In this document: positions 5,228-5,413 of the stretch, piece after piece | Position numbering within the stretch: position 1 is the stretch's first letter | How the letters are laid out: each line of letters starts with the position of its first letter | Source: a virus | Taxonomy: Duplodnaviria > Heunggongvirae > Uroviricota > Caudoviricetes | DNA length: 6,159 bases | Virus record (IMG/VR): IMGVR_UViG_2531839236_000025 | Direction: 5' to 3' (one strand) | Program-made: the position numbers and the translations under genes | Notes under the pieces: model-generated | Told to the model about the DNA's origin: nothing | The model's database searches: none | The model's input: the letters and a program-made list of their open reading frames with translations, nothing else

Positions 5228-5413
5228 ATGTCATCGAAAAACCGGCCCCGCAGAACCACAATCCGCAATATCCGTTTCCCCAATCACATGATTGAACAGA
5301 TCAATATCGCCCTTGAACATAAAGGTTCCGGTAACTTTTCAGCGTGGGTTATTGAAGCCTGCAGAAGAAGGCTGTCAACAGAGCGTTCGGGTATGAATTA
5401 CATAATTAAGTAA
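5228..5413 (+). CDS. small putative DNA-binding protein (61 aa), possibly ribbon-helix-helix-like; resembles YlcI/YnfO-type (DUF3950) prophage proteins from memory
   Basis: Strong SD (AGAGGAAAG) 4-5 nt upstream of the ATG. Sequence RRTTIRNIRFPNHMIEQINIALEHKGSGNFSAWVIEACRRRL has a beta-strand/helix/helix pattern and basic N-terminus. Opposite strand to the late genes, like bor-type morons. The family assignment is recollection, not a search result. Confidence 0.55.
   Translation: MSSKNRPRRTTIRNIRFPNHMIEQINIALEHKGSGNFSAWVIEACRRRLSTERSGMNYIIK

Follow-up and report, generated by a model that had tools for sequence, protein, structure and literature searches.

Results

A YlcI/YnfO-family gene lies antisense to the late operon

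In the window, i.e., the whole stretch of 6159 nucleotides that was analyzed, a small gene of the YlcI/YnfO family (ylcI) is carried on the plus strand, divergent from an HNH endonuclease gene. The features of the locus are as follows.

5228..5413, plus strand: ylcI/ynfO-family coding sequence, ATG start, 61 aa including Met, TAA stop at 5411-5413 (ORF list and HMMs)
5216-5221, plus strand: Shine-Dalgarno sequence AGAGGA of ylcI, read in the sequence, with its GAGG core 7 nt 5' of the ATG
5228..5380, plus strand: conserved core, approximately codons 1-51, nearly invariant in alignments
5381..5410, plus strand: hypervariable C-terminal tail in non-homologous mosaic DNA; tails vary in length and sequence among homologs
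5187..5227, no strand: divergent gap, exactly 41 bp between start codons, containing both ribosome-binding sites
5188..5193, plus strand: TAAAAT, a candidate and the sole -10-like hexamer close upstream, with no matching -35, invariant in five aligned loci
5410..5440, no strand: inverted repeat GTAACATGGTGTTC / GAACACACAGTTAC over the stop codon (repeat search; the terminator scan lists the minus strand only)
4821..5186, minus strand: HNH endonuclease gene of the packaging module, 121 aa (Pfam HNH 26.9 bits versus 21.4; PHROG 589/7275; RefSeq)
3968-4531, minus strand: small terminase TerS, downstream of HNH on that strand
2310-3971, minus strand: large terminase TerL, downstream of HNH on that strand
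309-2246, minus strand: protease-capsid fusion, a single 645-aa ORF, downstream of HNH on that strand

Because the ORF list of the window holds 71 ORFs of at least 30 aa, a length of 61 codons is weak evidence for ylcI when taken alone. It is a real gene on the strength of HMM evidence, of an N terminus conserved from Met1 across homologs in alignments, which also supports the start codon, and of a pN/pS of 0.08 (see below). An AAGGA motif is retained in the aligned locus of phage 783R2 despite replacement of the surrounding leader. A preliminary description of this DNA had proposed a 61-aa ORF preceded by a strong Shine-Dalgarno sequence, and both were confirmed at these positions; ylcI, 5228-5413(+), is a functional gene.

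Judged by profile matches, the product is a member of the uncharacterized YlcI/YnfO (DUF3950) family of lambdoid prophages. Pfam DUF3950 (PF13132) was matched at residues 21-49 with 70.7 bits against a gathering threshold of 25 (E = 8.9e-20), NCBIfam YlcI_YnfO_N (NF041551) with 34.8 bits against a cut-off of 30, and PHROG 949 with E = 8e-31. Every residue of the family motif R/K-N-I-R-F-P ... N-F-S-A-W-V-I-E/D-A-C is present in the window protein. In a prophage of O157:H7 str. SS52 that is 99.8% identical to the window, the corresponding ORF carries the RefSeq name "YlcI/YnfO family protein" (WP_001302295.1). The likeness to YlcI/YnfO (DUF3950), put forward in the preliminary description along with a proposal for an HMM search, is thus borne out by the curated Pfam and NCBIfam cut-offs and by the RefSeq name. 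Its remark that the function is unknown agrees with our literature search, which found no functional or experimental study of the family; the K-12 paralogs YlcI and YnfO are included in the y-ome (PMC11551758). Since Pfam, NCBIfam, and RefSeq already contain the gene and its family, the element is not of a new kind; the points added are a selection test, an Arc-like register, a fixed synteny across packaging types, an unannotated copy in lambda, and relatives in satellites.

The whole family comprises 95 clusters at 50% identity among 1.84 billion representatives, and a scan of 185,579 species genomes confined it to Enterobacterales apart from lambda-DNA contaminants. Many apparent homologs in unrelated taxa are lambda DNA, presumably from a sequencing control or spike-in; examples include Algoriphagus, Kitasatospora, Cohnella, a 3566-bp Arcanobacterium "plasmid", and proteins labeled Staphylococcus aureus. 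In such contaminants, the match lies ∼200-390 nt from the contig end, and the contigs measure ∼3.5 kb or ∼48.5 kb.

Selection acts on the protein sequence of a conserved core

Alignments gave the family core as MSSKNRxRRTTxRNIRFPNxMIEQINIALExKGSGNFSAWVIEACRRRL. A basic N-terminal arm (K4, R6, R8, R9, and R13) is followed by the putative β-strand TTIRNIRFP, helix A (residues 19-32), a G-S-G-N turn, and helix B (residue 36 onward). I15, R16, F37, W40, V41, and C45 are invariant even in relatives at 35-55% identity. DNA homology to BP-4795, JLK-2012, and lambda ends near position 5381 (approximately codon 51), a mosaic junction inside the 3' end of ylcI, so that the tail is whatever the adjoining DNA supplies.

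Over codons 1-50, the window and lambda alleles differ at 7.0 of 116 non-synonymous and 26 of 34 synonymous sites, a pN/pS of 0.08. With pS at 0.77, synonymous sites are near saturation, and the window allele represents a DNA-diverged lineage relative to lambda and DLP12, with a different C-terminal tail. Low pN/pS together with saturated synonymous change means that selection acts on the protein rather than on DNA or RNA; ylcI is under strong purifying selection, and few small proteins of E. coli lambdoid prophages are as strongly conserved as its product.

The divergent gap and the late operon

The neighbors of ylcI, i.e., the lysis, HNH, TerS, TerL, capsid, and portal genes, are all on the minus strand, and late transcription must therefore cross ylcI antisense. 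The SS52 prophage has the lysis genes upstream and the portal gene downstream, with ylcI likewise alone on the opposite strand. The preliminary description had anticipated both a 41-bp divergent gap to HNH and late transcription running antisense through the gene; the gap is exactly that length, and the orientation of the lysis, packaging, capsid, and portal genes bears out the second claim. The GAGG of HNH appears on the plus strand as CCTC at 5194-5197. It had also been argued that the ylcI promoter must overlap HNH coding or leader sequence, which does follow from the geometry, although no σ70 consensus was found there; promoter scans upstream of ylcI returned no σ70 consensus promoter in the window, lambda, or Qin contexts. 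The inverted repeat at 5410..5440 is possibly a transcript-end hairpin, and no T-run follows on the plus strand.

No plus-strand ORF of at least 30 aa lies between 5414 and a convergent ORF at 5543-5683(-). The latter encodes a very hydrophobic product of 46 aa, annotated in RefSeq as hypothetical protein WP_000347013.1, that had no match in Pfam, NCBIfam, PHROG, or PADLOC and could be a small membrane protein encoded by the late operon. The 645-aa ORF at 309-2246(-) combines Peptidase_S78 (residues 48-152) with Phage_capsid (residues 386-635) and is named merely major capsid protein in RefSeq. The sole Rfam match across the whole window was snoRNA-like and due to chance (E = 0.23). AsxR/AgvB anti-sRNAs and Pas sRNAs were ruled out at ylcI by their positions downstream of PR' near stx and holin genes.

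The position of ylcI is fixed across packaging types, including phage lambda

In every lambdoid phage checked, ylcI separates the lysis module from the packaging module and runs antisense to the late operon, and this position is common to two unrelated packaging types, HNH-TerS-TerL and lambda Nu1/A. The site between lysis and terminase genes named in the preliminary description therefore holds for the scanned prophages (nohD/nohA-type included), for Stx phages, and for lambda itself. Among HNH-type phages, the 41-bp spacing between ylcI and HNH starts is identical in BP-4795, JLK-2012, vB_EcoS-783R2, and a bovine E. coli strain. In nohD/nohA-type prophage loci (the arrangement of DLP12 and Qin), E. 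albertii, and phage Kati, cosN lies ∼200 bp upstream of ylcI; the distance from cosN to the ylcI start is exactly 199 bp in lambda and in the nohD/nohA-type loci of the genome scan. The core is nearly unchanged between phages with unrelated small terminases (Terminase_2 versus Nu1) and unrelated cos sites.

Lambda (J02459) contains a full-length, unannotated 64-aa YlcI/YnfO ORF at 48303..48109 on the minus strand. In our locus L003 it is found at 2710-2904 (-), convergent with lambdap79 and antisense to the late transcript, and it is absent from the 73-gene list of a 2023 CRISPRi essentiality screen of lambda. The "orf-64" of the lambda literature was considered as the YlcI copy and rejected, being lambdap73, upstream of S.

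The K-12 proteins YlcI (DLP12) and YnfO (Qin) share the family and the core IRFP...NFSAWVIEAC with the window protein, and their genes likewise lie antisense, with lysis genes on one side and the small terminase or cos on the other. Whereas the window has an HNH-TerS-TerL neighborhood, the K-12 type has nohD/nohA (Nu1-like). A DUF1398 gene (YbcV/YdfO-like) follows ylcI on the same strand in many lambda-type loci and is absent from the window, which suggests a two-gene reverse-oriented cassette in lambda-type loci. This gene order was seen at L032, L035, L041, L167 (ev099), and L168 (Kati); in some phage records the DUF1398 gene is mislabeled "head protein".

No 9-12-nt motif was common to the flanks of window-type and lambda-type loci (0 observed; shuffled mean 0.03-1.1), and no conserved nearby operator is therefore visible. 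In lambda, a palindrome, TGATAATGATTATCA, lies near cosQ, ∼150 bp 5' of the ylcI start (L003 ∼3050-3066; lambda ∼48449-48467). It is conserved in lambda-type loci, including L015, L032, L035, and L041 upstream of ylcI, and absent from the window. We take it to resemble a Fur box, as it fits 15 of 19 positions of the consensus presumed here.

The placement of ylcI is reminiscent of the lambda morons bor and lom, accessory genes that are expressed in lysogens from sites within the late operon region; of the two, bor is likewise encoded on the opposite strand, in the Rz-cos interval of lambda. Unlike these morons, ylcI has no recognizable promoter/terminator pair (the hairpin at 5410-5440 lacks a T-run), shows much stronger conservation, and always occupies the same position; its product is predicted to be a cytoplasmic DNA-binding protein, whereas those of bor and lom are outer-membrane proteins.

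Relatives in satellites and elsewhere

Relatives at 35-45% identity occur in int-alpA-(AntA-like)-primase satellites of Xenorhabdus, Pectobacterium, Serratia, Klebsiella, and others, where the ylcI homolog is again the sole gene on the opposite strand. No lambda-like cosN was found beside the satellite homologs. One satellite protein of 129 aa, P0200 (L004 4714-5103 (+)), known from one metagenomic contig, fuses DUF3950 to the N-terminal helix-turn-helix (HTH) of a Terminase_2-type TerS; both domains exceed Pfam cut-offs, and over 36 aa the HTH shares 67% identity with the window TerS. Like Rpp of Gram-negative phage-inducible chromosomal islands (PICIs; PMC6739421), P0200 pairs a TerS-like DNA-binding HTH with a separate dimerizing domain. 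From this domain layout, P0200 could be an Rpp-like packaging redirector. It resembles no solved Rpp or TerS chain in sequence, however, and the window protein, unlike Rpp, has no TerS-like domain.

In several satellites, the YlcI-like ORF lies wholly inside an antisense minus-strand ORF of 200-430 aa (L047 5535-6719 (-), L049, L057, L080, L069, L072, and others) that is translationally coupled to its neighbors. These long ORFs had no Pfam match and their N-terminal extents are not conserved; for these reasons they were not counted against the plus-strand gene. Third codon positions coincide in the overlapping frames, and the differences by codon position (2087, 1593, and 4283) would favor the plus frame over the minus frame.

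In Salmonella enterica subsp. diarizonae and arizonae (L044 and L045; match 6001-6147), a DUF3950 ORF appears to lie outside a prophage late region. By eye, we take this ORF to be flanked by a SopB-like gene and its chaperone on one side and by a gene for a PipD-like dipeptidase on the other, presumably an SPI-5-like setting. DUF3950 copies of Tatumella and Pantoea lie among ordinary chromosomal genes.

Several weak lines converge on a probable ribbon-helix-helix fold

No ribbon-helix-helix (RHH) model of Pfam matched the window protein at E≤1 (hmmscan), and sequence searches of PDB chains with the protein and with the family profile returned nothing relevant. Among PHROGs, a HicB-like match was obtained with E = 0.07. 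Two AF2 monomer runs (pLDDT ∼69) gave extended residues 1-18 followed by helices 19-32 and 36-59. No β-strand was called in the model, as expected because the partner chain is absent from a monomer prediction. Structure prediction, proposed in the preliminary description, thus yielded the extended N terminus and two helices but neither a strand nor a pLDDT above ∼69.

TCP domains have an RHH-like fold. Foldseek matches in the PDB were TCP domains, ParD2, and ArtA, and those in BFVD were proteins named RHH, Arc-type RHH, AmrZ, CopG, and NikA, all below significance. The named matches were thus predominantly RHH proteins, with every score non-significant. When the family profile was aligned by hhalign, P was 0.0036 against P22 Arc, 0.021 against Mnt, and 0.0018 (probability 15%) against an Arc/Mnt family profile, and the probabilities were low overall (2-15%). 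The Arc and Mnt sequences were verified against Pfam Arc; a viral-contig scan for Arc relatives gave only copies 96-100% identical, and the profile was built from other Arc/Mnt homologs. The register was constant across these alignments, placing N14-I-R16-F-P18 of YlcI on N11-L-R13-W-P15 of Arc. In Arc, N11 and R13 lie in the β-ribbon and contact bases.

P22 Arc and Mnt (Pfam Arc PF03869) resemble YlcI in their ∼50 residues, in an N-x-R-aromatic-P strand motif in the same register, in a helix-turn-helix B that starts with a G-x-S/N turn, and in being encoded by phage genes inside the late region. YlcI differs from Arc in lacking a significant HMM match (hhalign probability just 9-15%), in its longer basic arm, and in an invariant W40/C45 pair absent from Arc, and its gene, unlike those of Arc and Mnt, is not beside an antirepressor promoter. 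YlcI is predicted to be closest in kind to Arc or Mnt, a likeness that falls short of placing it in the Arc family itself. The RHH-like pattern noted in the preliminary description gains from the Arc/Mnt register and the RHH-named fold matches and loses from the missing RHH Pfam match. Taking these weak but convergent lines together, we consider it fairly likely that the YlcI core adopts an RHH fold. The basic arm fits nucleic-acid binding by its composition, and YlcI is probably a small Arc-like DNA-binding protein.

Discussion

A possible regulator expressed while the late operon is silent

The explanation that best accommodates these observations, to which we give an even chance of being right, is that the functional gene ylcI codes for an Arc/Mnt-like RHH transcription regulator that is expressed while the late operon is silent. 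The conserved 50-residue core would most likely comprise the basic arm, a β-strand bearing N14 and R16, and two helices, and YlcI would dimerize through a β-ribbon to bind DNA. As a reverse-oriented accessory gene fixed at the lysis-packaging junction of cos-type lambdoid phages, ylcI would probably be driven by its own weak promoter inside or beside the HNH 5' region. We infer both the DNA binding and the time of expression: ylcI would be on when the Q-dependent late operon is silent, in lysogeny or early infection, and antisense late transcription after induction would shut it off. The ybcW-ylcI pair of K-12 has been listed as a convergent excludon (PMC12288877), which indicates that ylcI is transcribed in uninduced K-12.

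The most likely role of YlcI would be that of a small transcription regulator, an assignment that, taken by itself, we make tentatively. A core almost invariant across unrelated cos sites and terminases implies that the target should be invariant rather than a phage-specific operator, and suggests a conserved target, possibly in the host. A lack of any consensus promoter upstream in three contexts and of a common 9-12-nt flank motif counts against a simple autoregulator. A more particular version, which we consider a long shot, is that YlcI is an overlooked and nearly invariant Arc-like repressor common to lambda and many cos-type lambdoid prophages that acts on a conserved host or phage target, not a phage-specific operator, as a safeguard for the packaging end of the genome when the late operon is silent; it could, for example, block leaky HNH/terminase expression or cos cleavage in lysogens. 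If so, it would be a new regulatory gene for phage lambda. If both an Arc-like fold and a regulatory target hold true, a minor gap in the gene map of the most thoroughly studied phage would be filled, and the silence of packaging nucleases in polylysogens such as O157:H7 might be explained. Lambda DNA enters the cell right end first, and ylcI could alternatively serve as the first gene transcribed from the DNA end that enters first.

Alternative roles for the gene and its transcript

A different reading of the position of ylcI is that its product is a packaging-associated factor, binding near cos or contacting TerS or HNH to modulate cos cleavage and not transcription, e.g., by keeping the prophage cos uncut or by assisting termination. 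It is consistent with a gene that always adjoins the packaging module, whether 199 bp from cosN (lambda-type) or 41 bp from the HNH start (HNH-type), and with the fusion of DUF3950 to a TerS-like Terminase_2 HTH in P0200, although that fusion is found on a single metagenomic contig. The near-identity of the core in phages with unrelated cos sites and small terminases argues against cos-specific recognition, however; a gene antisense to the packaging operon should be repressed when packaging proteins are made, and the satellite homologs lack an adjoining lambda-like cosN. We therefore hold a packaging role to be unlikely.

The DUF1398 gene downstream of many lambda-type copies raises a further alternative, namely, that YlcI forms a two-gene cassette with DUF1398 (YbcV/YdfO), as its antitoxin-like or regulatory member, and that the window copy is a solo remnant. 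Yet the window and all HNH-type phages lack a co-oriented downstream gene while the core is subject to strong purifying selection, no toxin activity is known for DUF1398, and the PADLOC defense models gave no match; nor did the ORF list and PADLOC reveal in the window the co-transcribed adjacent toxin of a type II toxin-antitoxin system. A cassette origin is accordingly improbable.

Still less probable is a reading in which the transcript matters most, serving in lysogens as an antisense RNA or excludon that damps leaky late read-through into the HNH and terminase genes, and the protein is secondary. Such a transcript would be fully antisense to the late mRNA and abut the HNH translation start, and it would accord with the K-12 ybcW-ylcI convergent excludon (PMC12288877) and with satellite homologs likewise embedded antisense in long operons. 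The pN/pS of 0.08 with saturated synonymous change nevertheless marks selection on the amino acid sequence, the Shine-Dalgarno motif is kept where the leader is replaced, and no Rfam match was obtained.

That the ORF is non-functional, whether arising by chance or as a conserved recombination linker between phage modules, is scarcely credible despite the mosaic junction inside its 3' end and the abundance of short ORFs in the window, as a chance ORF is ruled out by the HMM match (E = 9e-20) and by 26/34 synonymous versus 7/116 non-synonymous differences from lambda, and a homologous-recombination linker would conserve DNA and not protein.

Repeats between HNH and TerS

The HNH stop and the TerS start are separated by a 290-bp gap, which contains, at window positions 4600-4730, five (A)TGTTAAC/GTTAACAT copies in direct and inverted orientation. 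Perfect 12-nt inverted repeats occur there at 4602-4613/4623-4634 and at 4604-4615/4644-4655. This gap is the expected cos region, and its repeats are candidate recognition elements for TerS or cos.
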